In this document: positions 2,088 through 52,977 of the stretch, piece by piece
How the letters are laid out: each line of letters begins with the position of its first letter
Numbering within the stretch: the stretch's first letter is position 1
DNA from: Barthelona sp. PCE
Taxonomy: Eukaryota
Direction: 5' to 3'
Assembly: GCA_040285745.1 (NCBI GenBank)
Contig: JAUFOR010000008.1
Span: 558,001 to 622,000 of the forward strand
Length of the DNA: 64,000 bases
Program-made: the position numbers and the translations under genes
The notes under the pieces: generated by a model
The model's input: the letters and a program-made list of their open reading frames with translations, nothing else
Told to the model about the DNA's origin: nothing
The model's database searches: none

Positions 2088-5000
2088 TTAGATGTTTTCC
2101 TGAATCTTATCGTACAACCGATTAGGAGCGACATCGATGAATATAGGGACATGGTTGTTTGCGAAGAAACCTGGGCTAGCCTTCACAAAAAGTTCAAAAC
2201 GATGTTCGTATGCAAGACCATAATGGAAAGTAATAGGAACATAATTTTCGTTTAGATTCTCGCGCAATACAGGGAACGTGTACAACGGAGGAAGAGAGCT
2301 ATAATACTCATTTGGTTGAGAAGGAACAAGGAAACCTTGAGCATTCATATGAGCAGCATTGCATGTACACCCGTAGAATACAGGATGATAAACGTCATGC
2401 GTTTCTGCATCGGGACATTCGGGATCGATTGAAGCAATAATCACGAATTCGTCAATCGAACGTTCGAGCGTGTATGCAAACTGCACCTCAATAACATTCT
2501 TAACATAATTGGGGTGAAGAATACCTTTCACAGGAATCTGTTTGGAGTCAAGAAGTAAATTAGTACCTAAGATTGACTGCATAAAAGAAACATAAGAACG
2601 CATCATAGAAAAGAATTTTGTGATGCTGATTACGCCAAAGGGTAATTTCTTCGTCCAAGACTTTGGTACATAGTCTTGCATTATGCGACGGAGTTTTTCA
2701 CGTGCTATACCGAGTGGTACAGTGTGTGTTTTTAGACAATCAATCAAAAGAGTAATATCCAGCTCTATAATGCTAATACCCTTGCGAAGCTGAGAGTGCA
2801 TTCCAATAACGTAACGGATAGCAGGCTGTAAAACATCAAGCTTCTCCAATTTATCACGAGATAACTCAAACGTCGGAATTTCCTGGAGCATGTCTTCAAG
2901 GCGATCAATTGTGTACTTTTTGATGTAATCAAGTTGACTTGCAACCGGTACTGTGACATTAGCACTGAACAGCGACGCATCTGAAGGGGAAGCGATAAGT
3001 CGATTGACTCCAACAGCGCCCCACGTGCTTTGATACATCTTCTTGCTCTTTGCAATGACATATGATGTGTACTCGAACGACAGCTCCAAACAGCAGCACA
3101 GATTCTCAAGGTCAACAAGCGTCAGCATACCACTTGGAGATGAGAAGTGTTTCTTCACTGCTGATTTGAAAGGTGACTGTGTCAGCGATGTCACTGACTG
3201 TGGGTTGTTAAGCAGCGTGAAGAACTTAATGGTCTTATCTGAGAAGAACTTTGCAAAATCCGGGTTACAAAGTACATACGGCTCAATGAAGAGAGCAGCA
3301 GCTGTCTCCACTGCAATATCACTGATATCACGAAGAGAAATATATCGGGAAACCTGGAATACACCATGACGTAACGCTGAAGGAGGGAGGGTGAAGCGGA
3401 AAACAGGGTTATATGTTTTCAAAGTTCTGAAGTACGCATCGATCATCAAACACGCATACACAAACTGCCTGTGAAGGAGCTCAAGCTGAGTATTGTCGAA
3501 CGCCTTATCGATGAGGTTGCGGTAGGTGATGATGTGCTGAGTCAGCGCTTGTTCGATGTAGTGCACATTCTGATGATGATAAACGTTGATATTGCAGCGC
3601 AGCGTGACTGCAATGTTGGGGATACTGCTTGAGCACACAACAACGTCGGCATTCAACTTTCCACACTGGTGGTAGTGATGCAGGAGATGCAGCACCGAAA
3701 CTCCGATTGTGGGGTTCGTCAGAATCGTGACGGAAGCATTGCTGGTAAGGCAATTGTGCAGCGCCTGGCGTTTCTCATGGGACACAACGTAGACAGGGTG
3801 TCTGTCGATCTTTATGAAACGACAGTGTGGCCTAATATCGTGTTCGGGCCAAGGCCCAATCCTGAGCGTGACATAACCGTTGGTGGAGGGCTTGGAAATC
3901 GAAAACGGACGGATACCAAAGAGCTGATGGATGAAGTGCACCAATACCGAGACACCACAGTCTTTGACGAGCGTCTGGATGATAATGAGCCTATCGAACG
4001 GTTTGAGTGATAGGCCCAGCTCAGATGGAAGTTCAAGCTTGAGATACATACCGTGCTCATACCACTCTTGCCACATACCGTGCTGAGTCTTGTTAATGAG
4101 AGATCTGAATATAGTAACGTATGAAGAGTCTGCACCAGCGTTGATTATGTCAACGAACGCATAGAACGCCTCCGTATTGATGAAACTGGGCAAGTTTTGA
4201 TCAGGAACATCGGTGATTACTGCGTTTGAAGGACCTTCCTCATCATCAGAACTATGATCTAAAGGAGCCTTGTTGAAGTCGTTTGCGTGCCATGGAATGA
4301 ACGATTCACAAAGAATGCTTCTCTCCATAACGTTGGGAAGACAAAAATCAAACTCAAACTCAATGTTAAGGAAGCGTAAAAGACTGTACAGCACCTCTTT
4401 CCCGACAATCTGTGTATGGTACGCAATGATGAGAGCAATTGAAAGACAAGTTGACAAGCGGTCTTGCTCTGGTAACAAAGGAAGTACACCGTTCTTCAAA
4501 AACTTCTTTGTGAACGTGAGAGCCACCTTTCTTCTGATTGCGACAAAGTCCAGAGCAGGATCATTACTTGCATCTTCATTGCCGAGACCGTTCATCTGTG
4601 CCATGAGAGATGACATGTCGTGCTTAACACTCTTGAGAGCAAACACAGAAGATCTTCTTCCATCTTTAGGATTTTTGAGTTGTGAAACCACCTCCTTCTT
4701 GATCTTATTACACGCCTCGTCGAATAAGATGACGATCTTTGCGGGATTGAAATTCATATTACACACCGAGCTTGTCTTCTGGATGATGTGTAACAAACAT
4801 GGTCCAATCTCCATAATTGACTGACGCTGTGCAAGTGCACTCTCAAATGCGCTCTCAAACTTTGTGAGCTGAGATTTGAGCTCTGCATATGAAATCTTGA
4901 GTGTACGCAGCTGATCTAAAACGTCAGGGTGAGCTAGCTTGTCAACAGAGACATCCTCCAACGAAAGAACGTCGAGGATCTCCTCTTCTAGACGCTGTTC

Positions 5001-8000
5001 CTCAAGAGACTGTTCGTACAACTGCTGAATAAGGTTCCGATAGTTTCCAATAGAAGGATCGTTGAGTTTCTCGAAATAGATGGAATCCAGCTTCATAGAT
5101 AGCTCGTTGAAGTCCGGGAATAAGTTGATTCGATGATTGGGTGAGAAGAAAAGATCAATATCAGCTAATGTATTGACGTTGAAGCTGACGGTCTCATCGA
5201 GAACTATGAAAATACAGCACATAGAATGAATTTCGATTTCACCGCCCGGAGTTGAGATTTGATAGATGGTACCTGCACTGTCATCGATCTCAAGCTGTGG
5301 CACACCATCTGTATCCAGGCACTTGGCCAGTGTCTCAGTGAGTTCGTTATGCTTTAAATCAGCAAAGGCTGTGAACAACCGGGAAAGGGTCTGGAACGTG
5401 CGTAACATGGCCTTGTCCTGCAGATGCAGATCGGTGCAAGGCATGTTATGAATGACAACGACGGTTGGTGACGAGATAACCGTGATCAGCTCATCGAATA
5501 GGTTGGAGTTGAATTCAAAGGTGTGATAATCATCAAAGCACTCATTCATAACATAGGAACACTCTTGATTGGAACTGTTGATTGCAGTGAGTCCCGTGAA
5601 CTGCTTGAGGAACTCGATTCTGTTGATGAGGTAAGTGCTGTGTCTTTGGGTAATAAGGCGGTATGCTCCACTGCGCTCATTCTGCAGGCGGATCAAGGTC
5701 GTAGCGAGCGTCGTACGGGTGAACTTCATGTTATATCTCTTCATAATACTCTTGAAAACTTCCAAGACTTCGAAATTCAGACTTTCATCGCTGCCAACAC
5801 TCAAGATCTCACCAAATAGAGCCATGGCGAGAGAGTCTACGAATGCATTCGTGTAAGACGTATTTGCTTGCTTTAAGTACAAATGCCATCTGGCGCTTTC
5901 AGCCAATAAGATCTGACTCAGTTCAGATACCTGTCTGGAGAGTGTGTCCAGCGTTTGGAGCTTGTTTTCGAGGGTCTCTACATGCTTAGTTGCTTGTGCG
6001 TAGTTATCACGAACATCCTTCAACTCCTTCCTCTTACCTTCGAGTTCCACCTTCTTCTCGCTCAGCGCCTTCAGCTCAGCATCCTTTTCGGCCTCAATCG
6101 TGTTGATGCGTCCCTGCTCCTCTACAGACATGATGTAAGCGTTGAGGTATCCATTCAGACAGTGAATGAATCGAGCGACCTGACTCCACGAAGTTGACAC
6201 ACGTGATATGGACGTCACTGTACAATCAACGTGATCAATGACAGGTGTCATGCGTTGTACAAAGTTTTCGTCAAGGTCATCAATGTGAATAGCCAGCAGC
6301 TGCTGCTTGACGCTATCAAACTTCTCGAGGTGGTGTGTTTTAAACGTGTCCCAGAACTGTTGGTCCTCTCCGTCGATGTCTTCACGGAGAATTGCGACGA
6401 TGACACGTGCTACAATAATGATACGCGGTGGTGGAATCTCCACCTCACCAATGGAGTCAAGGAGCTCGATACCATTGAGCTCGCGAAGCGTATCAAGTGC
6501 TTCGTCGTACTCACCCTTGTGATACTTGACTTGTGCGGCGATATCGGTATTAACCTTTGACGTCTCAGAATAACGCAGTGCGATATCGTCCGAATCAGAC
6601 TGAATCATCTTTGCAAGCTTCTCTACCTCACCAGCAAGTACCTTGTAGCGTGAATTAAGAGAGGATACTCGGAGCGAACCGCTTTCAATACCAGATTCCA
6701 ATCTTTGGCGATCGTTGTCGCTGCTTCCAGCGAGATCTTCGATTTCTTCAAGCACTGTCTTAGCTCTTGTTAGCTTTGAAATGCGCTTATGCTCGGAACC
6801 GCTGAGTTTAACGAAATGATTCACGAGGTTCAAAACGAAACGTTCGATGGATGTATTTGTGATAGCATATTGAGAGTTTTTAGCAATCTTTACCAACAAT
6901 TCAGCAATCGTGCTTAGTAGAGTGTCATCATCTATGTTACTCTCAATTCTAAACTTTTTAACGAGATTATCAGGGATGGTCACGTCATCGTAAACATCTT
7001 CGCCCAATAATTTGCAGAGCCAGACACGAACATACTCCTCGATGTCAAAGACAGAGGGCTCCTCGAAGATAACACGCTGGAAGTTCGTGAGAACGCTGGA
7101 GCAGTGATCGAAAGCCTTTAGGAAGCTTGATTGGTCGAACTGAATGAATACAAAGTGGATATTTTCGCGAATGTGCTTTCTAAACCTGTTGATAGCAATT
7201 GGCAAATCCTGCTCGACATTGAACACAGACGCGCAACGTCGCAGGATGGCAACAGGGTCGAAGAACTTGATTAATACGTGATCGTAGCCAGGGGATATGA
7301 GAGCCTGAATGAACATGGAAATCTCAGTGTTAATATGGGGCAGGAGGATGGTTGCTTTGCGGTGGGTCTGCTCGAATACAAGGTCAAAGATAAGTTCGAC
7401 ACATGATGCGGTGAACTCGTCAAACGCCAAAGATGAAAGGTTGTGGTATTTGTGCCCTAAGAGGAGAGATGCTTGCTCAAGCACAGTGTGCGCCAACTTA
7501 AAGCAGTGCCCGTTGGCGATGATGATATGTGAGTTCTTGAGCGTCAGTAACCTAATGATCGGCAGAATGTGACGCGAACCGTAACCAGCTTGAATGGCAG
7601 GCGACACATCACACTTGTTTTCTTCGAAAGCTTTAATCACGTGTCTTGTTGGATCCTCACACTTGAAATAACAGCGAGCGTCATCGATTTCAACCAGTGG
7701 TGAAAAGAATGTTTGCTCAGAGAGTGAGTTCGGCACGACATCAGAAGCTAAAACATCGAAGTCAACCATAAATGATTGGCTGAACGCCTTCTTGACGATA
7801 GATTTGTCTTCAGGGAGTAGTGCGTCACTGAATATTCGACAACTCTCGTGAAACACCAGTTTAACAAAATCAACGATTCCACTAATGCGCTTGATTGGGA
7901 TCTTACATATAGCCTCAACCATGTGTCCCAAGTGAGTGAAGTTCAGTGACATGCCGAGGTAACCACTTGACGAAGGTATCTTATTACGTAATTCAACAAA

Positions 8001-11000
8001 TAAGTTGGCAATGGAACCCGCATACGTGTCGATCATGCGTCCGAAAAAGTCTGCAATTGAAGAGTTCTCAAAAAGCTTCATGATGATTTCATGATACTGT
8101 TCAACCGGATAGTCATCACAACTGAGGTGGAAGACACGGTTTCTCAGACGGTTTCCAATCATATCAGAACCATAAGCGTTCGAAGCAGTTAGAACCAAAG
8201 ATGTGTTGTTTAACGTCACAAATTCGTTGTCAACGATACACATACCATCTACAAGGAAAGAGAGCATGTTTTCGATGGTGCTGATGTTACGAGTGTCGCG
8301 AACACGGCTGATGAGATAAGCAACCTGTGAACCATATTTGGCACCATAACGGGAACTGCCTCTGCGCATTAGAGGCTTGAAGAAATTACTTCTGATATCA
8401 TCAACAGTGATATTTTTGAAAACACCAATGTGATGTGAGTCGAAGCGATCGTTCTTCTTCTTCATTTCGTTGAGAGTACGCTTTGCAATTATGGTCTTTC
8501 CGATACCGACAGGGCCATCAATGAGCATAGACATGCCCGCATTGGTCAAAAGCTGAACGAGGTTAGCGGTACGTAAGACCTTCAACGTGGGGTATAGCTG
8601 ATGCGTTGAGTCATGCCCAATGAGGGACGATGCACTCACTTCTGAGAACTCCATCCAGACGGGATCAGAGTTACTCACATCTAAGAACAAGTCGTACAGA
8701 GACTGGCCAAATGGAATCTTGATCTTGAAGTGTGGTCTCTTACGGAGTATAGCCGACTTGGTTTGGGTTGCAAGACGATCACGGTCACGTGATGAAAGCG
8801 CTGAGCCAAGACCCCAAATTGTTGAAAACACAATTGCATGATCAATGTTGTTGAGCGCCTGTCGATTTCCGAATTCTGTCTCCAAATCAGGTCGACTGGC
8901 GATGAATTGCTTAATATGGGTTAAAAAGGATGATATCAATGCGAAAACTGAGTTGATGGGCGCAAGGGAGATACTTCCATGTGTACTCAGCTCCAACAAA
9001 GAAGGAAGCATACTCGACAGGACGGTTGAAATGTGCGTCTGATATATTTCGTCGATGTTGAGCAGCTTGGCCTTCTTCTCAATATAGCGCGGGATTGACG
9101 GAGAGCACGCAACGTGCAGCGTCGGAATAGCGCTGATGAGACGAGGGGTTAGCTTCAAATGATCAGCCACTTCTATAATAATTTTAAAGTTTGAAGGTAG
9201 AACCTTGATGGCGTTTTTATGTGACATCTTTGAGTTAACAAACAATAGAGGGTCGGTAACAAGCTGTAGGAAAGGACTAAACCATGATTTCATAACATCT
9301 CCTTCAATTGCCAAAATATACATCTTATCGGGATCATCAACGACGATATTGGAGATGAAACTATGTAAATCGTCCGCAAAACCGTCACCATTGATTCTCA
9401 TATATTTTGTAATGCAAATTTCATCAGCCTCAATGTTATTCTTGAGCGCGTGGTATTTTGAACAAAACTGAACATAAGCATCGACCAGCGTGGACTTACC
9501 CGAACCACTGTCACCCAGCAGCATGCAGATATGTTGCTCCTGGAAGAGCTGGTGGATGTTACGGATACCCTGCGCGATTTCTGTAGAAAGTGTTGTATCT
9601 AGAGCCATGACATTTCTGATTGCAACTTCCATGGTGTCTCTCACAAAGTTCTTGGGACGAACCTTGTTAAAGAAAGATTGTGCAAGGCGAATCAGGAAAG
9701 AGTGAGACTCCTTTGGCAGTTTATACAAGATCTGGTTTCTGAAGTGTGTTAGGATTGTTGAGAACTCGTAATTAGTGAGGTCCTCACACCCGAACTGAAC
9801 GCTGCGCTCTACGGCTGTGTGTAGTGCACAATGTATAATGCGGTGGTATGGATAGATCCTCAGATCTGGCTTGACAATCGTAACCGCAATTGTTGACAGA
9901 GCATAAAGCCTGCTACCAATGATTTTATGGTTTGGCGAGCCGTATGAACGGAATATGGCAACGAAATCGTCTTCTTTCAGTGGTGATGCAGCAACGTTCA
10001 CACCACTAGAGAAAGTGAGTCGGGTGTCAGCACAAAGCAGAACAAGGAACGGTGTATGGAGAGGGATGACGGTATTGTCGTAGACCACCGTTTCTTTTCC
10101 TCCGCGAATCGCCACATCAATGTCATGCAACAGTGAGTTGAACTCGAGTACACATGATGAAGAGAGACTACGGACACCAGAGAAACTGACTATTGAACCA
10201 GACAGAGCTGAACAGTAGATTGCATCAAAGATCTCCTTGAACGTTGTATTGGGACGGCAGACGAACATTCGGAGATTGATGCCGATGAAACACCTGAACA
10301 AACCCAACATTGGGATGAGAGAGAAGACGTCGGAAACCTGAATTGGACAACGTTGGGCGAACGCAAGAACAAGACCTCGGATAAGAGAGGTTCGTTCGTG
10401 CGTCAATGGTAAGAAAGAGAAGTTACTTGAATAATTTGGCTGAATTTTGATAGAAAGTGTTGAGTGCTCAATTACCAAAGCACCGACTTCCTTCTCCCTG
10501 AACTGTGGAAGAGCTGGGAGTATAAATGCCGGAGGCTCGATAGCTGCTCTTACGTCCCAATCTGGTAGCTCTTTAGGGATTGTTGGAGTGAGCAAACGAA
10601 GCTTAATAACCTGGTTGTAGTAGTTGATTCGACTGCCAAAATCATCAAGAGAGATGAACTTTGCAAGTACACCGACACAATACTCAAGAACAATTAAAAC
10701 TGAGCTTGCTACATGACGAAGTCTATTTTCATTATCAATTACAGACACGTCATCGTGAACCATTTCATTTGCCTTTTTCAACAGATGTAAAGAACTGTTT
10801 TGAACTTCATCATACAATTTGGAATATGCTGCCATATAACGTTTCTTAATGTTATTCAGTTTAGTGAAATCGTGCAATAAATAATCGAGATCACGAGTAA
10901 AAGTACAAAAGATGGCTACAATAATTGCCTGTTGTGGGAAGGAGCAGAACCAGTCAATAATATTTTTTTCATAGTTGAAATCAGCACATGCCTTACATGT

Positions 11001-14000
11001 GAAGTACCTAATCTTTTCAGAAAGAGAATCCTGAATCTTGATTGGGAATTCAAAAATTGAACACTCGGGGAAAGGTACCAGGAACGTCTCACCCATTTTT
11101 GTGGAGATACGCACGTAAATGCGGTCATTTGCCGTTTCACTAATGAACTGAAGATGGGCAAGATATGGATACAACATCAGCATCTTATTTGTAAATGCTG
11201 ATGAGTGCATATCTTTAAACCCGTACAATAAGAGTCTGTCAATGTATGAAAGAAGAGACACCCTGTTGAGGAACAGATTAACTGAAAGATTAAGAGTCTG
11301 CTCGTCTAAGAAGTGAATGAATTTCGGGGTTAACTCACGTGCTGTGTTTAAAAGATACGATGTCGACTGGCGCCAGTTTGAGGAGGCAACGACAAGCACA
11401 ATCTTCTTCTCAAGATACTTCTCCTTGACGTATTTATGGAAGCTATCAGCCAACTTTCGATACATCATGTGGAATTGCTTAGTGGCAACTTGTTTGGGAA
11501 AGGCCTGAGCAATAGACTTGATTCCAATGAATAGAGTTTGGAATTTCTGTAGCGTGATGCATACAATATGTAGAACGTTGAGCCATGAGCAGAACTTGAT
11601 TAATATCATGGGATCATCAAGATGAGTATCAGAAAACTGTTCCAATTGTTCAAAACTATGGTGCAGTACGTCTCTCAGTTTCTTGAACGATTTTTCCGAG
11701 AATATCATTGTCTGACTGGTATTGTCCACCTCGAATTCCCATAAAAGGCTTTCCAGAGTAAACTTGCACTGGTCTATCACTGTTTGAATAAGATTCTCTC
11801 GTTTCGCTCTGTTAACTATCTTTCCGACTGCATCTAGTTCCTCAACAATATTGACCTGATCAAGAATTGAACTCAGGGACCCAGAAAGGAAAGAGCGAAT
11901 GTCTTTATCGAAAATATCGTCAATACTAATCCAATGTCTAGTACGCAGCACCGGACAGCGAAGGTACCTGATGACAGGCGCGAGTTGGTTGAAATTAAGG
12001 ATATCCGACTTGAGTTTATCAAGCATTCGTGAATGACCTAAATTTTTGGAGTTTGCAAAGAAGACCTCATTTCTCAACTCACCCAGCTGATCGAGGTAGC
12101 CATCTATCTTGTTGGTGATATCATCTATATTAAGCGTAAGGAAAGAACTAAAGTTCCAATCAAAGTAATTAAGCTGCCAATTAACGCCGATTTCAAACAG
12201 ATTAACAAGTGGAATGAACTCGCTAGGAAGGTCAAAGAGACGCGAAAAGTCTGTTGCGCGACGCTTGAGGAGTCCTTCGTTCTTGGTGATTCTCTGAGAA
12301 AACTCGAAGAGCTCATCGTACTCCTCTTTCAAAGGACGGAGGATACTGAGCTCCCTCTTGTTATCATCGAGTGAATCCTGGTGATAAACGACAACAATAT
12401 CGTTAATCTTCGCCTGTAACGCCAAGAACTGATCATCGAAATCTTTCCTCCATTCTTGTAACTGCGTGTTAAAGTTCTCACGAAGCTGCCTGATATGTGA
12501 GATACGGCTTCTGTTGCTCTGTTCGATGCGTTTCGGCCATGCAAAGAGCTCAAAAAAGAGTTTCCAATATTCATCTTTGATACTCTTGAACAACTCTAGT
12601 TGAAGGAAAACTTCAAATGTTTCACAGAGGAAACTGTACTGTTGAGGCAGGTCTGAGAGCGCATTGTCAATGAACATTGCCCTCTTCTGCAGTTCTTGAG
12701 GATCCTTTGGTTCCATTGCAATGTACTCATCGGCCTCAGTGAACTTATCCTTCAGTTGGCAGAATATTCCATAACAGTGAGTCACCTCATGCTGAACCAG
12801 CGAGCTGACGACCTTGTCCGAAGCTTCTGATACGAGCGCCTTGAAGTTACTGACAGAGACAGAGAAAACACGCTTGATGGGATCCTGATCATGTGAAACA
12901 AAAAAGGAGAGGTCAAGAGCGTCAATGTTTTTAGCGCTAAATCTACTCACATCCTTGAGTACATCCGAAGTTATCTTGAATATATCAATTTTATGGTAAG
13001 CCAAGAAAAGCTCCGAGTAATCCTTGGTTGGCTCAACCATCATCTCCTCAACCTCGGCAACGGCCCTCTCAACAATTTCAAATACTTCCTGTGTTTCGTT
13101 ATTCTGTTCAAAAACTAACAAATCGTGTGTAGGCATGATACCGTTGATAAAACTGAGTGACTGATAAATATCATCAAGGAACTGCTTGAACTTGTGGTCA
13201 ATCTCACTTACTGAAGGACTAATACTGAAACCGCTTGGAGACTTATTGTCGAATAGAACTTCGAGAACAAACAGTGGGGATGATCTCAACAGACCAATTA
13301 GATGGTCCACCAATGCTGCATAGAGAACGGTGATTGCCTCCATTCGTATGAATCTGACAAGTTGATAGAAGCGTTCCCTCTCCGACTTGGGTGCCAGCTC
13401 TTCTGGCTTGGCCCACTCCTCATTGTAACACAAAGGGAGTACATCGACGAGCTCCTTGGTCCACACATCTCTGAGGTACTTTGAAAGTTCAATGAGTTTA
13501 CGGTATTGGAGCCCAAGCCATAGATCAAACGGCAACTGCTGTCTGAAATCAAATATGAGTGAATTTTTGATATTCTCACATGTATTGAACAATTTCTTAA
13601 AAAAGCGCTGATGTGCAACGGTTTTAAAATAAAAAGAAGAATTAATTCGATTCGAAACCTTTTCAAAATCAGAAAAAACTATATAATCTGGACTTTGAAC
13701 TATTTCATTTGGTTTAAATAATGCATTTCTATGAAGTGCAACTGAAAAACATTCGTTAATACCATGATCTAAAACATCCTCCGGTAATATACCAATTCTG
13801 TCAGCCAAGCTCATAAGAAACTTTTGGGGAATGTCAATGGGATGCTTCAGATGGAGATGTGATAAGTACTGCCCTTTAATATAATCTTGCTCTATCTCAT
13901 CACGAATCTTTTCCAATTCTTCCTTGATGACATTCAACTCCTCGTTTGATTGACCATCAAAAAGTAATGAGAAACGACTGACCTTTTTAGTGAACTCGTC

Positions 14001-14807
14001 CATCTTGATCGTAAACTTTCGATTTTCATTATCATAATACTCAACAGAACATTCCTTCCAGTACCATTTATCACCATCGAAATAACGTGCAAAGGCGGTT
14101 GTACGTAACCCTTGAAACGCTTTCTTCTCATTAGGCCCAATGATAAACTTACTGTGTTCATAAAAAAAGTCTAGCGGAATATGAATGCCCTGGAACTTTG
14201 GCAATCTTTCTTGCAACTCTTCTCGTATGAAATCATACCGGTTCGAATGCAGTTCTCTTGCTGTCTGGACCAGGCTGTCTGTGTTTGTCCTCGGTGTGAA
14301 GTCTTCCTTCGTGAAAGTATCCAAACCAGCTCGAGCTGTAGCACTGAGTCGTTGAAGCTCATGTGCTGTATGACTTGATAATAAGGGTACAGGGGGGTCG
14401 ACCACAGCTCCACTGATATTGCTTGTTTGATTTAAATAAACGTTTCCGTCTGAATAGTTCTGGTCCATCTGTCGAGGTTCATTAATCAGTTTTGACCGAA
14501 ATGTTCGATCCTGATAAGTGCGTGCTGGCCTCTTTTGTGGTAAACGTAGGGGAGGTACAGGTGCTTCAAACTTTTCTAATGTCTTTGCTGGCAAATCGGG
14601 GTGCAACATGGGGGGTGGAGTTTCACGACTGAGAAAACTCTTAATGTTTGTTCCTTGTGCCATCCTTCCGGTTGCTAAAAACTCATTACGAGCCACTTTT
14701 TGCTCTGCAAAGGCTAATTGTCGATCAAGATACTGCTTTCGTCTAACAAAGCTCGATGGAGGCCTTGTTGGCAAGCCTATTTCCAAATCCTTGGATTTCT
14801 TTGACAT
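2088..14807 (-). CDS. Highly divergent axonemal (inner-arm, DNAH1-like N-terminus) dynein heavy chain-like protein, probably ATPase-dead at AAA1
   Basis: About 4240 aa; linker motif LRCPVLRTRHW; P-loops GDSGSGKST (AAA2) and GPVGIGKT (AAA3); LVFHESCRIFSDAL; stalk coiled coils flanking an MTBD-like PPPRIIIVARVIVAIL...SRVSTSWSQVARFI; LEEEILDVLS; C-terminal VPKSW. First ATG at 14807. Confidence 0.85.
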   Translation of the reverse strand: MSKKSKDLEIGLPTRPPSSFVRRKQYLDRQLAFAEQKVARNEFLATGRMAQGTNIKSFLSRETPPPMLHPDLPAKTLEKFEAPVPPLRLPQKRPARTYQDRTFRSKLINEPRQMDQNYSDGNVYLNQTSNISGAVVDPPVPLLSSHTAHELQRLSATARAGLDTFTKEDFTPRTNTDSLVQTARELHSNRYDFIREELQERLPKFQGIHIPLDFFYEHSKFIIGPNEKKAFQGLRTTAFARYFDGDKWYWKECSVEYYDNENRKFTIKMDEFTKKVSRFSLLFDGQSNEELNVIKEELEKIRDEIEQDYIKGQYLSHLHLKHPIDIPQKFLMSLADRIGILPEDVLDHGINECFSVALHRNALFKPNEIVQSPDYIVFSDFEKVSNRINSSFYFKTVAHQRFFKKLFNTCENIKNSLIFDFRQQLPFDLWLGLQYRKLIELSKYLRDVWTKELVDVLPLCYNEEWAKPEELAPKSERERFYQLVRFIRMEAITVLYAALVDHLIGLLRSSPLFVLEVLFDNKSPSGFSISPSVSEIDHKFKQFLDDIYQSLSFINGIMPTHDLLVFEQNNETQEVFEIVERAVAEVEEMMVEPTKDYSELFLAYHKIDIFKITSDVLKDVSRFSAKNIDALDLSFFVSHDQDPIKRVFSVSVSNFKALVSEASDKVVSSLVQHEVTHCYGIFCQLKDKFTEADEYIAMEPKDPQELQKRAMFIDNALSDLPQQYSFLCETFEVFLQLELFKSIKDEYWKLFFELFAWPKRIEQSNRSRISHIRQLRENFNTQLQEWRKDFDDQFLALQAKINDIVVVYHQDSLDDNKRELSILRPLKEEYDELFEFSQRITKNEGLLKRRATDFSRLFDLPSEFIPLVNLFEIGVNWQLNYFDWNFSSFLTLNIDDITNKIDGYLDQLGELRNEVFFANSKNLGHSRMLDKLKSDILNFNQLAPVIRYLRCPVLRTRHWISIDDIFDKDIRSFLSGSLSSILDQVNIVEELDAVGKIVNRAKRENLIQTVIDQCKFTLESLLWEFEVDNTSQTMIFSEKSFKKLRDVLHHSFEQLEQFSDTHLDDPMILIKFCSWLNVLHIVCITLQKFQTLFIGIKSIAQAFPKQVATKQFHMMYRKLADSFHKYVKEKYLEKKIVLVVASSNWRQSTSYLLNTARELTPKFIHFLDEQTLNLSVNLFLNRVSLLSYIDRLLLYGFKDMHSSAFTNKMLMLYPYLAHLQFISETANDRIYVRISTKMGETFLVPFPECSIFEFPIKIQDSLSEKIRYFTCKACADFNYEKNIIDWFCSFPQQAIIVAIFCTFTRDLDYLLHDFTKLNNIKKRYMAAYSKLYDEVQNSSLHLLKKANEMVHDDVSVIDNENRLRHVASSVLIVLEYCVGVLAKFISLDDFGSRINYYNQVIKLRLLTPTIPKELPDWDVRAAIEPPAFILPALPQFREKEVGALVIEHSTLSIKIQPNYSSNFSFLPLTHERTSLIRGLVLAFAQRCPIQVSDVFSLIPMLGLFRCFIGINLRMFVCRPNTTFKEIFDAIYCSALSGSIVSFSGVRSLSSSCVLEFNSLLHDIDVAIRGGKETVVYDNTVIPLHTPFLVLLCADTRLTFSSGVNVAASPLKEDDFVAIFRSYGSPNHKIIGSRLYALSTIAVTIVKPDLRIYPYHRIIHCALHTAVERSVQFGCEDLTNYEFSTILTHFRNQILYKLPKESHSFLIRLAQSFFNKVRPKNFVRDTMEVAIRNVMALDTTLSTEIAQGIRNIHQLFQEQHICMLLGDSGSGKSTLVDAYVQFCSKYHALKNNIEADEICITKYMRINGDGFADDLHSFISNIVVDDPDKMYILAIEGDVMKSWFSPFLQLVTDPLLFVNSKMSHKNAIKVLPSNFKIIIEVADHLKLTPRLISAIPTLHVACSPSIPRYIEKKAKLLNIDEIYQTHISTVLSSMLPSLLELSTHGSISLAPINSVFALISSFLTHIKQFIASRPDLETEFGNRQALNNIDHAIVFSTIWGLGSALSSRDRDRLATQTKSAILRKRPHFKIKIPFGQSLYDLFLDVSNSDPVWMEFSEVSASSLIGHDSTHQLYPTLKVLRTANLVQLLTNAGMSMLIDGPVGIGKTIIAKRTLNEMKKKNDRFDSHHIGVFKNITVDDIRSNFFKPLMRRGSSRYGAKYGSQVAYLISRVRDTRNISTIENMLSFLVDGMCIVDNEFVTLNNTSLVLTASNAYGSDMIGNRLRNRVFHLSCDDYPVEQYHEIIMKLFENSSIADFFGRMIDTYAGSIANLFVELRNKIPSSSGYLGMSLNFTHLGHMVEAICKIPIKRISGIVDFVKLVFHESCRIFSDALLPEDKSIVKKAFSQSFMVDFDVLASDVVPNSLSEQTFFSPLVEIDDARCYFKCEDPTRHVIKAFEENKCDVSPAIQAGYGSRHILPIIRLLTLKNSHIIIANGHCFKLAHTVLEQASLLLGHKYHNLSSLAFDEFTASCVELIFDLVFEQTHRKATILLPHINTEISMFIQALISPGYDHVLIKFFDPVAILRRCASVFNVEQDLPIAINRFRKHIRENIHFVFIQFDQSSFLKAFDHCSSVLTNFQRVIFEEPSVFDIEEYVRVWLCKLLGEDVYDDVTIPDNLVKKFRIESNIDDDTLLSTIAELLVKIAKNSQYAITNTSIERFVLNLVNHFVKLSGSEHKRISKLTRAKTVLEEIEDLAGSSDNDRQRLESGIESGSLRVSSLNSRYKVLAGEVEKLAKMIQSDSDDIALRYSETSKVNTDIAAQVKYHKGEYDEALDTLRELNGIELLDSIGEVEIPPPRIIIVARVIVAILREDIDGEDQQFWDTFKTHHLEKFDSVKQQLLAIHIDDLDENFVQRMTPVIDHVDCTVTSISRVSTSWSQVARFIHCLNGYLNAYIMSVEEQGRINTIEAEKDAELKALSEKKVELEGKRKELKDVRDNYAQATKHVETLENKLQTLDTLSRQVSELSQILLAESARWHLYLKQANTSYTNAFVDSLAMALFGEILSVGSDESLNFEVLEVFKSIMKRYNMKFTRTTLATTLIRLQNERSGAYRLITQRHSTYLINRIEFLKQFTGLTAINSSNQECSYVMNECFDDYHTFEFNSNLFDELITVISSPTVVVIHNMPCTDLHLQDKAMLRTFQTLSRLFTAFADLKHNELTETLAKCLDTDGVPQLEIDDSAGTIYQISTPGGEIEIHSMCCIFIVLDETVSFNVNTLADIDLFFSPNHRINLFPDFNELSMKLDSIYFEKLNDPSIGNYRNLIQQLYEQSLEEQRLEEEILDVLSLEDVSVDKLAHPDVLDQLRTLKISYAELKSQLTKFESAFESALAQRQSIMEIGPCLLHIIQKTSSVCNMNFNPAKIVILFDEACNKIKKEVVSQLKNPKDGRRSSVFALKSVKHDMSSLMAQMNGLGNEDASNDPALDFVAIRRKVALTFTKKFLKNGVLPLLPEQDRLSTCLSIALIIAYHTQIVGKEVLYSLLRFLNIEFEFDFCLPNVMERSILCESFIPWHANDFNKAPLDHSSDDEEGPSNAVITDVPDQNLPSFINTEAFYAFVDIINAGADSSYVTIFRSLINKTQHGMWQEWYEHGMYLKLELPSELGLSLKPFDRLIIIQTLVKDCGVSVLVHFIHQLFGIRPFSISKPSTNGYVTLRIGPWPEHDIRPHCRFIKIDRHPVYVVSHEKRQALHNCLTSNASVTILTNPTIGVSVLHLLHHYHQCGKLNADVVVCSSSIPNIAVTLRCNINVYHHQNVHYIEQALTQHIITYRNLIDKAFDNTQLELLHRQFVYACLMIDAYFRTLKTYNPVFRFTLPPSALRHGVFQVSRYISLRDISDIAVETAAALFIEPYVLCNPDFAKFFSDKTIKFFTLLNNPQSVTSLTQSPFKSAVKKHFSSPSGMLTLVDLENLCCCLELSFEYTSYVIAKSKKMYQSTWGAVGVNRLIASPSDASLFSANVTVPVASQLDYIKKYTIDRLEDMLQEIPTFELSRDKLEKLDVLQPAIRYVIGMHSQLRKGISIIELDITLLIDCLKTHTVPLGIAREKLRRIMQDYVPKSWTKKLPFGVISITKFFSMMRSYVSFMQSILGTNLLLDSKQIPVKGILHPNYVKNVIEVQFAYTLERSIDEFVIIASIDPECPDAETHDVYHPVFYGCTCNAAHMNAQGFLVPSQPNEYYSSLPPLYTFPVLRENLNENYVPITFHYGLAYEHRFELFVKASPGFFANNHVPIFIDVAPNRLYDKIQENI

Positions 14808-22628: not shown

Positions 22629-23059
22629 GAAATTTCTAGACAGTGTGAAAATGGAAGCAAACCAGAAACAAACCAACTTTCCTCTAAAAATTCATGTATT
22701 TATTCGTATTGCCTTTAACAATACTTTTGCGTTGGATAACATGTTCAAAAACACATAATAAATCTAAAAAGCGACGAAAGTTAAACAGGTACTTCTTATA
22801 CATGTTTTTATCGACATAAATGTCAATTATTCCGCTTTATCCTAAGTGTGGGCATAAATATCACAACAAAAAGCAACTAATTTTGACAGATGCCACCTCA
22901 GTTAAAAACGATGCATTGAACGATACAATCGGTCAATTACCCAGCAATATCATTTTACCAACATTTAAAGGTAGGATACCCACACAAAATATCCAAATAA
23001 TGTCCACAACAGAATATTTTGGATTTTCTTTTTCTCTCCCTTTCAAATTCATATTTATC

Positions 23060-23473
23060 ATGGATCTTTTCCGCCACACATCAAACATCGTCCGTAGTGT
23101 CATTAAGTATACCAAGGACCACGAAAGAATTAATATTGAGGGAAACAAAGGTGTCTTAAGTCTTGCTAAATACGCTGCTGAACATCTTGGTGAGTTGGTT
23201 TACGTAGACGCACCCGAAGTTGGTGATGAATTCTCCGTCAGCGATGAAGTTCTTGCTGTTGAATCAGTTAAGGCTGCTAGCAGTGTCTATGCTCCAGTGA
23301 CTGGTTCAGTTCTCAAGGTCAACGAAAGCCTTGAAGAGGATCCTGGTCTTGCTGGTACTGACCCTTACGGTGCCGGTTGGTTGGTTGAGATTGAGATCAA
23401 GAACGCCGCCGAGTTAGATAACCTTATGGATGAAGCACAATATGCTGAGTTCCTTAAGCACTGTGCTCACTAA
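23060..23473 (+). CDS. GCSH: Glycine cleavage system H protein
   Basis: KYTKDHE, LGELVYV, lipoyl-Lys motif VESVKAASSVYAPVTG, DPYGAGWL; the ORF upstream of 23060 is AT-rich and looks non-coding. Confidence 0.93.
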   Translation: MDLFRHTSNIVRSVIKYTKDHERINIEGNKGVLSLAKYAAEHLGELVYVDAPEVGDEFSVSDEVLAVESVKAASSVYAPVTGSVLKVNESLEEDPGLAGTDPYGAGWLVEIEIKNAAELDNLMDEAQYAEFLKHCAH

Positions 23474-29066: not shown

Positions 29067-30449
29067 GTGAATTCTTTGAGTAAATTGTTTTCCAAAATTC
29101 AACCTATTCTTTCGAAGGAAAACCTTTGTAAGATATCCGTGTCTCCGTTTTACACTGATGCTGGCAGCTATTCGGGGTTTTCTGACCCAATAGCTTCAAT
29201 TCCACTGGTAGCCAGCGTTCCACAGGATAATGTTCCACTTGCATCTCCTTTACCGTCACCCATGCCGAGCCCGACGTCTTTTATGACGCATCAGCCAAAC
29301 CTTCCAACTGTATTAAATCCAGTTAAGCAGGAAGATAATTTCTCTCCTGGTTTGCCTCTAGTTGCTCCTTCGAGCACACCTATGGGGGCTTCCCCGCTAT
29401 TGCAACCGCAGGGAAATATGGAAATGATGCAACAACAACAACAAACAAATCCATATCAGTTTATTGTGCAACCGATATCAGCACAAAATATGCAAGGGCA
29501 GGGGCAAATGCAAGGGCAGGTCCAAGGACAAATGCATAATCAAATGCAGGGGCAACAGCCAGGACAAATGGCATTCATGCAGTACCCTCAAATTGTCATG
29601 CCACAAAACGTACAGGGTGTCCAGGGCATACAGGGTGTCCAAAACATGCAGGGTGTCCAGGGCATGCAGCAGCAGCAATATATGCCTATGTTTATGGGAC
29701 AACAAAGCCAACAGCATATTCAAGCGATGAAACGAACAAGTTCTTCACCATCATATCCGCAACCAGCAAAGAAGGGTTACTCACCGAAGAAGCAGAGGAA
29801 AAGATTGGTGTGGACCCCAGAGCTTCATAAGAAGTTTGTAGATTCAGTCAAAGAATTGGGTATTAAAACCGCTGTTCCACGAACAATATTGAAGAAGATG
29901 GGTGTCAACAACCTGACTCGTGAGAACGTAGCATCGCACCTGCAGAAATACAGAATTTTGGCAAGAAAACAGCACGGTGTCGATAAAAACAACCCCCTAG
30001 AAGATTATATGCTTCCCAGAGAAGATCCTCTTCTCAGTAAGTTCTACGCAGAGTTGCGCGAAAAGGAGCTCCATACAGAAAAATACATGTGCAGGCTGGT
30101 ACTTAACGGCGTGGGTATGTCTCCAATTATTCAGTCACCTGTTGTCGGATCTCCACAGGTGGTGTTCACGACAGCCATACCGAACGGTGTGGGCTCTCCA
30201 TTGATATTAACACCAGTAATGACACAAAACATGGCTGGATCTCCGGGTGCAAACCCACAGCCTACATTTATTCAACAACCACCCTCGATGCTTCATCCAG
30301 TGATCGGAACTCCTACTACCTCAGTGTCTACACCTCAGGCCACACAGCCTTTCCCCACACAGAACATGACAAATGTGCAGCATCCACAGAGTTCCACCAT
30401 ACTCAAAATTTCGATTGATGGAGGAACACCGCCGATATTGGATATGTAG
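29067..30449 (+). CDS. GARP (G2-like/ARR-B-type Myb) transcription factor with Q/P/S-rich regions; true start uncertain
   Basis: [52 protein letters not shown]; first in-frame ATG is 29262. Confidence 0.88.
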
Positions 30450-46216: not shown

Positions 46217-48106
46217 ATGAATGGGGATTTGGAGCGCATTAAATCAGAAACAAAAAAGAAAAGGTCTCTCCTTGAGGATCTCAGGGAGCGAAATAAGCAG
46301 CTCACCGAGAGTTTGAGTGATTCATTGGATATTAACAGTCTACTTCACAAATATCTACCTTCAAAACCCATCGTTCTGGGTGAAGTACGCTCCAAGCTTG
46401 AACAAATTAGCAAACCAAAGGAGGAAAGAAGTACTGTACCTGAACATTCAGAAATTCAGGTTCAGGAACCGAGAGCACATAGGGAACCCACCATGGAGGA
46501 CTTCTCTAGTGTCCTATTCACTGCACAGAGTACGAAACCTGCCGTCTATGAGATCGGCCTTCAAGCTGAGATGGTTGAGACCAAAGAATACAGTATTGAG
46601 GAGCCAATCGTTACTGTTGAGCCCGAGTCTGAACCGGAGGACGATGTTTTGAGGCCTGAGGAGCGTGTATTGACTCAGGAAGAAATCGAAATGATTGAGG
46701 AGTCGCCTCAATTCCTTCAATTCTGTGAACGCGTATCCAAACTTTATTCCTCTGTACGCGACAGGCCCGGTGAGGATGTGCAGCTGTTCACATTAACTGA
46801 GACTTTAAAGCAACACACAGAAACCGAAAAAATGTTCGAGGTTCTCAAAACCAGGCCTACGCAGGATCTACAACAAAAGAACAATGAAGCTTACAGTGTG
46901 ACAACGTTCAACCAATTGCGTGGTGGAATGCTTGCTATCGGTATGGGAAGAGGACACGTCCAGCCTGGAATGCTCCCGGAGGACGAGATGTCTGGGCTTG
47001 TTGTGCTTGTTAACGTTGCACAGCCCAATACAGTGCTACGTGTGTGTTGTGTACCACATCCGGTTACAAATATTACTTCACATCCAGAAAAAGCACATTT
47101 ACTGTATGTAGGTACACGATTCGGCACAGTATATGCATTCAACGTTCTTGTTGAGGCGGAAACAACACATCCAGCGTTTTCGTTTCCTCCATTCCGGGGG
47201 TGCACCGTCATCGGCCTGCTTTGGATCCAGAACTCTCTTCTTATTTGCTTATCCACAGGTCATCTCATGCTGTTCCACCTTGACATCGACGGGCGCCCAC
47301 CGGACAAACCAAGCGAGTACTTTAAGATGGTGACCGAAGGAGGATTCTCTGAGTTCACAAACGTTTCGTTTTGTCCAGCCAACAGTATCGTCAGCATGAC
47401 CGCGTCCACGATCACCGGCCGCGTTGTCCACTCGCTCATTGATGATTTCAAGGCTGGCTCGAACTCAACCCCAATAGGTGAAAAGCTCACCGAGGAAAAC
47501 TGCAAGCTCCTTCAGGAACGGGCCATTGGGTTCAAGACACCGGCGCATATGGGGCCTGTGCTTGCAATGGACGTGTGCACTCCGCCAATGGGAAGCACAG
47601 GAAATGAGGCGATTGTCAGATGTAACTTCGAGCAATGGATCGTTACAGGTGGGTCCGACTGGGACGTGCGGTTGTGGCTGCCCTCAAGTGTGGTGCAACA
47701 CTTTGTATCGTCGGTCGAGATGGATTCCAGCATTTTCATGAGAGATCACTTTTGTCTTGCTGTTTTTGAGGCACATGGACCGATAACAGGCGTTGCTTTC
47801 AGCCCTAAGAACCCCTTGGCATTTGTCTCATGCGATGCGAATGGAGTGATTCAGTATTTTGATTTGCATCATGATTTTCATGGTCCCAGGTACGTTTTTT
47901 CCTTAGAAGATGATAAAGTGTGCACATCCCTTGTTATACACAACAATCATATCATTGTGGGCACTATGTCTGGCAATGTTCGAGTTTTTATGGTGCAAGA
48001 AACTGTTCTACCACCACTCACTGAGTTGTGGGAGTCTTTCGGAGAAAAGATCATTAATGTGCTCGAGAACCATAAGCGTGTGGAGTCTGAGCGTACACAG
48101 AAGTAA
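46217..48106 (+). CDS. Cytoplasmic dynein intermediate chain-like WD40 protein
   Basis: N-terminal coiled coil, LTQEE...IEESPQFLQF, AHMGPV, TGGSDWDVRLW, VAFSPKNP. Confidence 0.7.
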   Translation: MNGDLERIKSETKKKRSLLEDLRERNKQLTESLSDSLDINSLLHKYLPSKPIVLGEVRSKLEQISKPKEERSTVPEHSEIQVQEPRAHREPTMEDFSSVLFTAQSTKPAVYEIGLQAEMVETKEYSIEEPIVTVEPESEPEDDVLRPEERVLTQEEIEMIEESPQFLQFCERVSKLYSSVRDRPGEDVQLFTLTETLKQHTETEKMFEVLKTRPTQDLQQKNNEAYSVTTFNQLRGGMLAIGMGRGHVQPGMLPEDEMSGLVVLVNVAQPNTVLRVCCVPHPVTNITSHPEKAHLLYVGTRFGTVYAFNVLVEAETTHPAFSFPPFRGCTVIGLLWIQNSLLICLSTGHLMLFHLDIDGRPPDKPSEYFKMVTEGGFSEFTNVSFCPANSIVSMTASTITGRVVHSLIDDFKAGSNSTPIGEKLTEENCKLLQERAIGFKTPAHMGPVLAMDVCTPPMGSTGNEAIVRCNFEQWIVTGGSDWDVRLWLPSSVVQHFVSSVEMDSSIFMRDHFCLAVFEAHGPITGVAFSPKNPLAFVSCDANGVIQYFDLHHDFHGPRYVFSLEDDKVCTSLVIHNNHIIVGTMSGNVRVFMVQETVLPPLTELWESFGEKIINVLENHKRVESERTQK

Positions 48107-50691: not shown

Positions 50692-52977
50692 TTACACAAC
50701 AATGTCAATTCTCTCGTTAATTTCCTTCAGATCATCGACCTCATCCTCGATCTCTTCTTCACAGCCTCCACATTCAAGCTGCAGTTCAGTACAATCTGAA
50801 ACAGGACGAGCGTTAATGAAGTTTGTAATGTGCTCAAGGGTGACGCTGTCTCCACAGTCGCGCACTGAAAGGCTCTTGAGGTTCACCAGAGGGGCAAGCT
50901 GTACAAGTGAAGCTCCGTCAAGACCCAAAATCTTAGCGAGAGTGAGTGACTCAAGGTTAGTACATTCGGCGGCTGCATCTACAACAGCACTGGAACACTC
51001 CGTTCCCTCAACGTTGACGAGCATGATGGTTTCTCTAGCAATCTCAAGGATAGGGACGACGCTTGTCTCTGTGATCGAAGGACATCCATCAAGTTGGATA
51101 TCGACGAGCGCAGATGCGAATGGTCCAGATGCGAGCTTGGAAACACCCTCATCGGTGATGTCTTCATTGTTTGAAAGATCAACGTGCGTTAACCCAGTGA
51201 TCTTTGATAGGTGATCAAGTGCTTCATCCTCAACAGAACACCATTCGAGAACAATGTGGCGCAGGGGACACGAAACAAGCTTGGAAAGAATGGTCTCGTT
51301 GAGAGTAAGGCCAGAGAGGTTCAGCTTCTCAAGATGCTTCATATTAGAGAGAATCTTGACCAGCTCCTTTGCTATGCACGACAGTTCCTTAACGTTGAGC
51401 TCCTTAAGCAGGGACAGCTCTGAAATGATTGGTGCACACATTGTTGTGAGACGATTGAGCTGGCTGATATCCAACACTTGCATCTGTCCGACAAAGGGCT
51501 CGAGAGCGGCGTCAAGGAAGGCGTCATCGAGCTTTGTGCAGAGACCCACTCGCAGCTCGTTGAGCATGCCTGCTGAGTTGATCGAGTTAAGGACATCATC
51601 CGCTGTAAAGTTCTTACAACGAGAAATGTTGAGTGATGTGAGGCGATCACTCATCTCAATTAAACCATCATTAAGGACACCACTGATATCAGGGCATCCC
51701 TCAAGATTGACCTGCGATAAGTTCTCAAAAAGAGACATAATTGCAAGCACTGCCTCATCAGTCATCCAAACGTAAGAAAGATCAATACCAACAACCTTCT
51801 CACATTGGAACTTCCACTCTGTGGGTTCGTCCGTCTTGTGGGCGACGTTGGAGAACAAGAGACGGGAAACACCTCCATCTCCGATAGCGAAGGAAACATC
51901 GTCGTCAACATCTTCGTAATCGATAGAATCGTAATCACCTTCGAACTTGGCGTAGTCAATGGTGAACAGAACACGTGTCTTATCCTCCAGCGTGAGGTAG
52001 ATGACATGATCCTCGTCCTCAGCATCTCTCCAGTTACAGACAACCTCAAAGGCTGACTCCCGCTCGACATCATCGATAACACGGCATCTAGGGAAGGCAT
52101 CCTCCCACTCATACTCCTCGTCCTCTCCCTTGTAGACGACGAACTTGAAGTAGAAGTACTCGGGCGCAGCGTTCATTGTGCCGCTGAACACACCGTAGTC
52201 TTCACCTTCCTCCAGCTCGAGAGCACCTTCTACGTCCCATTCACCGAGTTCAGGAATAGAACCGACAACAAAGAGACGATCTCCGTCGTCAACATCGATG
52301 GGTGCGCCATTAACCTCGAAATAAACAGTGTTGGCACCTGACTCGTCAACTTCATCCTCGCCTAAGTCAATAGGTTCGTCAAAATCAACATCCTCGAACT
52401 CCTCAACGGGTTCCTCGGGCATCTCAATGTCTGACATCTCCATATCCTCTGGCTCTTCGTTCAGGAGTTCCTCCATCTTTTCAAGTTCTTCCTTTGCCTG
52501 TAACTCTGCTGACTCGTCCAGCTCCTCAATGGGCTTAATCTTAACCTTGAATCCACGCTCACTTGACACACGTGCTAGCTCATAGATGGTTGTGATAACA
52601 GCGCGTTTGTTGGTAGCTTCATACAATTGACTTGTATCAAAGACTTGTGACTCATGAACTCCCAATTTAACGCATGCTTCGCAGAACATAGTAATGTTCT
52701 CCATCTGCATGAAGGGCATGCTCATCTTGTGAACCCTCTTAATAATCTTGGGCTGAATCTTATTGGCTAAGGAACAAATGATCTGTCCATTGCGAAGAGA
52801 CTCCATCAATGGAAGATCGATCTCTGTCTCGAGTACAAGCTCCATCCAACTGTGAACGCTAGCCTCGAGCAGCGCAAGATCCGCTTCTTGTGTTGCGGAG
52901 ATAACGTCAGAGCCTGTACCAACCATCTTAGAGCGCTCAACGCGACCAATAGCCTTTAATTTACGCTTGGGTGCCAT
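50692..52977 (-). CDS. Calponin-homology + CBM20 + LRR (AMN1/FBXL-type) acidic protein
   Basis: LRNGQIICSLANKIQP...PFMQMENITMF...FDTSQLYE (CH); LFVVGSIPELGEWD..GAL.L...FKFV...EWE (CBM20); LTHVDLSNNEDITDEGV (LRR). Confidence 0.85.
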   Translation of the reverse strand: MAPKRKLKAIGRVERSKMVGTGSDVISATQEADLALLEASVHSWMELVLETEIDLPLMESLRNGQIICSLANKIQPKIIKRVHKMSMPFMQMENITMFCEACVKLGVHESQVFDTSQLYEATNKRAVITTIYELARVSSERGFKVKIKPIEELDESAELQAKEELEKMEELLNEEPEDMEMSDIEMPEEPVEEFEDVDFDEPIDLGEDEVDESGANTVYFEVNGAPIDVDDGDRLFVVGSIPELGEWDVEGALELEEGEDYGVFSGTMNAAPEYFYFKFVVYKGEDEEYEWEDAFPRCRVIDDVERESAFEVVCNWRDAEDEDHVIYLTLEDKTRVLFTIDYAKFEGDYDSIDYEDVDDDVSFAIGDGGVSRLLFSNVAHKTDEPTEWKFQCEKVVGIDLSYVWMTDEAVLAIMSLFENLSQVNLEGCPDISGVLNDGLIEMSDRLTSLNISRCKNFTADDVLNSINSAGMLNELRVGLCTKLDDAFLDAALEPFVGQMQVLDISQLNRLTTMCAPIISELSLLKELNVKELSCIAKELVKILSNMKHLEKLNLSGLTLNETILSKLVSCPLRHIVLEWCSVEDEALDHLSKITGLTHVDLSNNEDITDEGVSKLASGPFASALVDIQLDGCPSITETSVVPILEIARETIMLVNVEGTECSSAVVDAAAECTNLESLTLAKILGLDGASLVQLAPLVNLKSLSVRDCGDSVTLEHITNFINARPVSDCTELQLECGGCEEEIEDEVDDLKEINERIDIVV

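Follow-up and report, generated by a model that had tools for sequence, protein, structure and literature searches.

Barthelona is a tiny anaerobic flagellate and a metamonad. Barthelonids carry a pair of unequal, heterodynamic flagella and vibrate as they swim (PMC13087550). In a 64,000-nucleotide stretch of the Barthelona sp. PCE genome (the window; G000:C8:558001-622000, from a genome, G000, of 10.2 Mb in 8 contigs), a preliminary description had reported a full-length dynein heavy chain, P0001, with an erased AAA1, the primary hydrolysis site of dynein (PMC2706395). Here, we ask whether P0001 has ceased to be a motor, from which kind of arm it derives, and whether it could serve as an axonemal tether, brake or scaffold, the roles first proposed for it.

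Results

P0001 is encoded by a single minus-strand frame with 0 stops (157 and 355 in the strand's two other frames), and the 12.7-kb ORF is as intact as first described (Table 1). A profile of the genome's nine canonical heavy chains matches it collinearly from tail to C-domain (E 7e-60), the top solved dynein structure matches at E 3e-19, and Pfam places DHC_N2, AAA_7 and an AAA lid above the cut-off, with AAA_6 and Dynein_C weak. Tail, linker, six AAA modules, stalk and C-domain follow one another in the order of the dynein heavy chain superfamily; the tail, linker, stalk and segment like a microtubule-binding domain (MTBD) named in the preliminary description are all present in collinear alignment with the canonical chains, AAA5-6 aligning weakly. 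Identity to any dynein is only ~18%, and the branch length of P0001 in the tree is 10, the upper bound.

Table 1. Features of P0001 (window positions) and degenerate paralogues elsewhere in the genome (G000 contig positions)
Feature	Position	Strand	Loci	Detail
Degenerate dynein heavy chain (P0001)	2088..14807	-		One frame, 4239 aa
N-terminal signature of class-7/8 single-headed tails (residues ~210-290)	13938..14180	-		Shared with paralogues
DHC_N2 neck and beginning of the linker (residues 861-1167), the best-conserved part	11307..12227	-		E 2e-17; 11/14 conserved tail columns kept
AAA1 module with its fold pattern preserved and its catalytic residues gone	9573..10439	-		16/79 conserved columns identical; polar 3/29
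Erased AAA1 Walker A, CPIQVSDVFSL	10317..10349	-		Loop ~2 residues short (read by eye)
Erased AAA1 Walker B, SFSGVRS; D,E replaced by S1543,G1544	10167..10187	-		Profile and alignments
Sensor I position with D1594 in place of N; NPGY loop gone	10026..10040	-		Gap-free profile
AAA2 Walker A GDSGSGKST, intact	9489..9515	-		Motif scan
AAA2 arginine-finger position, SR replaced by S1892,A1893	9129..9134	-		Alignment
AAA3 Walker A GPVGIGKT, intact	8493..8516	-		Motif scan
AAA3 Walker B lost, reads YLISRV	8301..8318	-		Alignment
AAA4 P-loop lost, reads ANGHCFK	7497..7517	-		Alignment
Coiled-coil stalk carrying the MTBD (residues 2659-2991), close to normal in length	5835..6833	-		E 1.6e-21
MTBD (residues 2765-2896), core kept, both boundary prolines lost	6120..6515	-		Net charge -14
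Degenerate C-terminal domain (residues 3968-4187)	2247..2906	-		Weak Dynein_C match
Gamma-type degenerate chains (four)	C4:763877-780145, C8:1848069-1864160, C8:2075471-2093122, C6:193523-207943		L032-L033, L036-L038, L052-L056	
Beta-type degenerate chains (five)	C2:586715-602779, C2:556336-571902, C4:948391-962994, C2:1157409-1173155, C1:306735-322124		L040-L041, L043-L047, L049-L050, L061-L062	
Class-9-type degenerate chain	C3:1268637-1278200		L034-L035	3187 aa; tail profile

Each motif quoted in the preliminary description was found in its place, including LPLTHER (minus strand, 10412-10392) ahead of the Walker A and Walker B remnants. Among reference dyneins these sites read GPAGTGKT in 117/117 and DEFNR in 116/117; in P0001 both are gone according to motif scan, profile and hmmalign alike, and the HMM alignment gave neither a GKT nor a DE pair in AAA1 in either register. 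The second register arises from CVLEFNSL, which lies 12 residues downstream of SFSG and mimics DEFNR. MAFFT with canonical chains only placed CVLEFNSL on Walker B in 18/18 runs and, with 7 divergent chains added, placed SFSG there in 6/6 runs. When scored against a gap-free profile (83 columns, 122 references), the SFSG register was the best in the whole protein (14.1, z 5.1), compared with -66.5 (z 0.6) for CVLEFNSL, and hmmalign also picked SFSG (posterior at least 0.7). AlphaFold, run on an alignment biased to the CVLEFNSL register, still returned CVLEFNS as helix (low confidence, mean pLDDT 49.7); two other alignments (A3, A5) misplaced the query and were left out of folding. The AAA1 model had no Foldseek match at E ≤0.001, although ranks 1 to 8 were nonetheless dyneins, and ESM features of the stretch match dynein AAA modules (0.90-0.91).

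The damage extends further than the preliminary description saw. Besides the GxxxxGKT of Walker A and the DE of Walker B, P0001 lacks two other features of an active motor, sensor I and the AAA2 arginine finger, the SR arginine of AAA2 being what completes the AAA1 nucleotide site; these losses strengthen the earlier call of a non-motor dynein. Judged from its residues, AAA1 of P0001 is unable to bind or hydrolyse ATP canonically. Strict Walker A motifs occur only at residues 1765 and 2098, so that the AAA2 and AAA3 P-loops alone survive, and the AAA3 Walker B and AAA4 P-loop are altered exactly as had been read. It is scarcely credible that P0001 is still a motor, working through a shifted Walker B glutamate or through AAA3: CVLEFNSL resembles DEFNR closely enough to attract aligners and the AAA3 P-loop is intact, but the shifted register scores no better than given above, AAA1 has no lysine-threonine P-loop, and the arginine finger and the AAA3 Walker B are both lost.

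Conservation was compared over those columns whose conservation among 45 references reached 80% or more. P0001 keeps 11/14 such columns in the tail, equal to the active class-7 chain, and 16/79 in AAA1, versus 127/134 and 123/134 in two active paralogues; from AAA5 onward the test covers only 2 aligned conserved columns. Hydrophobic positions are still hydrophobic in 149/175 cases (background 45%; the profile alignment used for this count favours hydrophobic matches), and polar positions are kept in 34/123. Codon usage follows that of the canonical chains (r 0.90; off-frame, -0.02). AlphaFold on residues 1745-2940 built three AAA modules together with a coiled coil and MTBD (pLDDT 63, pTM 0.32), and the AAA2-to-MTBD model matched dyneins in Foldseek (E 2e-31, TM ~0.26), a match that is partly circular, with alignments built from dyneins, and that leaves the ring arrangement unpredicted at this pTM. 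The conserved AAA2 and AAA3 P-loops, hydrophobic cores and tail point to selection for shape without catalysis, and P0001 is best described as a maintained fold from which catalysis has been released. That it is instead a functionless duplicate in decay is very improbable: the low identity to any dynein and the failure of our searches to find an orthologue would fit, but a 12.7-kb frame has stayed free of stops at such divergence with normal codon bias, two P-loops, the cores and the tail have been retained selectively, and the compact 10.2-Mb genome holds ten more intact long degenerate frames.

The stalk also departs from active dyneins. MTBD net charge (Table 1) compares with +2.8 on average across 117 references (range, -2 to +7), most of them DNAH1 orthologues, and with -4 to +6 in nine active paralogues; 3.4% of P0001's own 132-residue windows equal the MTBD in acidity. 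Segments H1 (-4) and H3 (-6) are lower than in any of the 117 references, and H6 has normal charge and retains its basic residue; we take helices H1, H3 and H6 to be those that face tubulin. Both stalk boundary prolines are replaced in P0001 and present in 130/130 other aligned chains (this alignment omits 5/9 orphan chains, whose scores did not reach the cut). A literature search on the stalk prolines found nothing relevant. MTBD affinity for microtubules is reported to rise when negative charge is removed (PMC9117880).

P0001 thus has neither the stalk prolines nor the non-acidic binding face of an active motor and is unlikely to grip the neighbouring doublet. As a tether or brake, it would be anchored by its tail with the stalk bound to that doublet without release. 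Stalk length and MTBD core are kept, H6 retains its basic residue, and without AAA1 there would be no ATP-driven release; however, the charges of the whole domain and of H1 and H3 lie beyond those of the 117 references and nine active paralogues, and both prolines are lost. We regard this reading as improbable, since the acidic MTBD and the missing prolines disfavour it. Among the roles first proposed, a scaffold fits better, and tether and brake fare worse.

P0001 has no DHC_N1 match, as in single-headed tails; its tail is short and is placed apart from the two-headed classes, placement with classes 3-6 (outer-arm, I1) being rejected (AU <0.01). By these comparisons the tail belongs to the single-headed inner-arm type, class 7 or 8. 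The N-terminal signature that had been read as DNAH1-like is real; it is not specific to DNAH1, as the genome's class-7 and class-8 chains share it. Of 139 tail matches, 132 map either to the query or to the class-7 or class-8 chain of this genome. An early call of class 8 (120/139 tail matches) was weakened, the class-7 paralogue being long-branched and the tail placement and profiles leaning towards class 7. A PMSF mixture-model tree groups P0001 with class 8 (97), on a saturated branch; tail placement puts it best beside the class-7 chain (RELL 0.87), and tail profiles score 137.5 bits for class 7 and 96.9 bits for class 8. P0001 resembles canonical class 7 (DNAH3/7/12) and class 8 (DNAH1) in tail type, length and domain order, and differs from them in every AAA1 catalytic motif, in the stalk prolines and in the charge of its MTBD. 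Divergence over its N-terminal 600 residues far exceeds that of active chains.

Orthologues were sought in three ways. A search among 1709 candidates returned 3 matches, one of them P0001 itself, and no orthologue; a homologue search with residues 201-1200 likewise returned none (best other match, 79 bits, 25%); and a pattern search gave 157 matches, of which 0 were confirmed. Shared ancestry with the group-A degenerate chains, considered for their similar Walker B remnant, was not supported, P0001 being absent from the group-A profile matches. The homologue search for group B was confined to proteins of 3501-5000 aa and misses chains of group-B size.

P0001 is one of at least 11 degenerate long intact dynein frames in the genome, which also holds nine canonical chains with intact AAA1: outer-arm gamma and beta, classes 6, 7, 8 and 9, class 5 (assigned by elimination) and two putative cytoplasmic chains (so called from low profile scores). 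The other degenerate chains are one of class-9 type, four of outer-arm gamma type and five of beta type (Table 1). The gamma-type chains (4806-5883 aa) have tails scoring 165 bits for DNAH5 versus 89.5 for beta, and the beta-type chains (4867-5354 aa) 173 bits for beta versus 68 for DNAH5. One gamma-type chain retains an AAA1 Walker A; no strict Walker A was found anywhere in the five beta-type chains, and no DEFN-like Walker B in any of the 11 degenerate chains. Members of the two outer-arm-type groups are 16-21% identical (four of each compared), which makes the duplications old.

Several further observations concern these chains. The four gamma-type chains have an IQ-like tail motif in common and retain the AAA2 P-loop, and two beta-type chains stand head to head on C2, ~15 kb from one another. 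The class-9-type chain has a degenerate AAA1 and a shortened stalk and ends soon after it. Altered AAA3 P-loops occur in 4/9 canonical chains (L014, L022, L026 and L028; GTAKT twice, GTSKS and CGKRT), one of which also has an odd AAA3 Walker B. An early idea that class 7 is missing from the genome was abandoned when C1_1000k grouped with DNAH3 and DNAH7 (99). C8_1815k, which we take to be midasin-like, was set aside from the dynein count on its four P-loops and their spacing.

Discussion

Known non-motor dyneins offer partial parallels. DNAHX of sea urchin, a non-motile animal chain found as a heterodimer in the phi conformation, is like P0001 a full-size heavy chain with a disabled AAA1 and an impaired stalk-MTBD, inferred to be non-motile (PMC11785096). 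It differs in being derived from an outer arm, in its length of 5272 aa and in its reported absence from protists, and it keeps Walker B and traps ATP in AAA1, where P0001 has no P-loop (PMC11785096). P0001 shows neither the outer-arm origin, the retained Walker B nor the unusual length of DNAHX and has a single-headed tail and normal length; the four gamma-type paralogues are closer to DNAHX. A role as packaging partner, as proposed for DNAHX, would have P0001 pair temporarily with an active arm, inhibit it and ride intraflagellar transport, with no lasting place in the axoneme. The disabled AAA1 and stalk-MTBD of the phi heterodimer (PMC11785096) favour the analogy, a non-binding MTBD fits it, and four tail types are represented among the dead copies of this genome. 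We nevertheless hold it unlikely for P0001: the ATP in AAA1 and the Walker B of DNAHX go with a pre-stroke state (PMC11785096) for which P0001 lacks the P-loop, single-headed tails lack DHC_N1 and P0001 has no match to it, and four plus five outer-arm-type copies exceed the need of one-to-one packaging.

DNHD1 (class 11) is axonemal and, like P0001, has a poorly conserved AAA1 without Walker B residues (PMC11785096); it differs in being metazoan-specific in PMC5100056, a contrast drawn from its published description. Since class 11 is metazoan-only in that account, an origin of P0001 independent of DNHD1 is likely. The same source lists eight further classes and 75 orphans, with tails of canonical type, and gives no detailed analysis of their ATP sites; P0001 resembles these orphans and classes 10-17 in joining a canonical-class tail to a divergent motor (PMC5100056). 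An erased AAA1 with a class-7/8-type tail recurs, among 20 chains looked up from the tail matches, in full-length chains of Geranomyces (P0188), Thoreauomyces (P0195), Achlya (P0237) and Carpediemonas (P0228); a Thecamonas chain among the matches retains Walker A. Carpediemonas membranifera P0228 has 4361 aa, a single-headed tail and no strict P-loop. P0001 matches it at 62.8 bits, and specific kinship to the erased-AAA1 chains is not supported; nor do the data show that P0001 and the chytrid, oomycete and Carpediemonas chains form a single old family, their grouping being a long-branch pattern. With an intact gene, a canonical-type tail and a disabled AAA1, P0001 has the makings of a non-motile orphan dynein gene, and taken alone it is a lineage-specific instance of a recurring kind.

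The chief novelty is the ratio of eleven to nine across four tail types. No such expansion of dead dyneins in a metamonad was found in the literature searched, mostly open-access main texts; the word dynein is absent from the main texts of PMC11316075 and PMC13087550, and the supplements of PMC5100056 and PMC11316075 may list such genes. Metamonad relatives may hold more dead dyneins.

Our preferred reading, to which we give close to an even chance, is that P0001 is a duplicate of a single-headed inner-arm dynein turned non-motor structural subunit. Its tail would still take p28 (one copy in the genome) and actin and dock within the 96-nm repeat at an inner-arm site, although docking may have changed, given the diverged N-terminal 600 residues. 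ATP at AAA2, and perhaps AAA3, would keep the ring folded; there would be no power stroke, and the stalk tip would leave the neighbouring doublet ungripped. P0001 would then occupy its slot as a passive spacer or platform, and a filled slot would mean fewer active motors per flagellum, region or doublet. Axonemal position is thought to be set by dynein tails, and class 7 fills four slots (PMC5100056); this genome supplies a single active class-7 chain for the four positions, in addition to P0001 and the dead class-9-type chain.

A large scaffold outside the axoneme, at basal-body roots, fibres or the cytopharynx, would account for the extreme divergence (the branch length at its bound), barthelonids have fibres attached to microtubular roots (PMC13087550), and eleven dead chains are many for two flagella. 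It strikes us as quite doubtful, as the neck, the best-kept part, is of inner-arm type and an acidic stalk tip is ill-suited to cross-linking microtubules.

More speculatively, the dead chains could form a parallel kit, the four gamma-type and five beta-type ones pairing into pseudo outer arms and two pseudo inner arms (P0001 and the class-9-type chain) occupying single-headed slots; replacing live arms with dead ones, whether per flagellum, per region or per doublet, would set the different beats of the two flagella and cut ATP use. We think this possible but on the unlikely side. Non-motors would in that case account for the majority of the cell's heavy-chain genes. Eleven dead and nine working chains suggest flagella that use motor shells as structural parts. 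For what orphan dyneins do, human DNHD1 among them, the sole structural case comes from a sea-urchin preprint. Barthelona is a culturable flagellate whose 10-Mb, intron-poor genome has a single active chain for each class beside the eleven dead ones; such a system could tell if dead dyneins take up places in the 96-nm repeat or serve only to ferry the live ones, and what minimum of active arms a beating axoneme needs.

Neighbouring genes

Other genes of the window include a WD40 protein (46217-48106, plus strand) that by eye resembles a cytoplasmic dynein intermediate chain, and a Myb-like protein (29262-30449, plus strand) with an SHLQKY motif, presumably of GARP type. An unusual fusion (50692-52977, minus strand) joins a calponin-homology domain, a CBM20 starch-binding domain and, as read by eye, leucine-rich repeats. 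Two cysteine-rich surface-type proteins lie on the minus strand, one with ephrin-receptor-like repeats (3-1202) and one with several membrane spans at its end (58866-63830, by eye). A glycine cleavage H protein is encoded at 22820-23473 (plus strand); its first ATG gives ~75 extra residues before a second methionine, which may begin an organelle-targeting leader.
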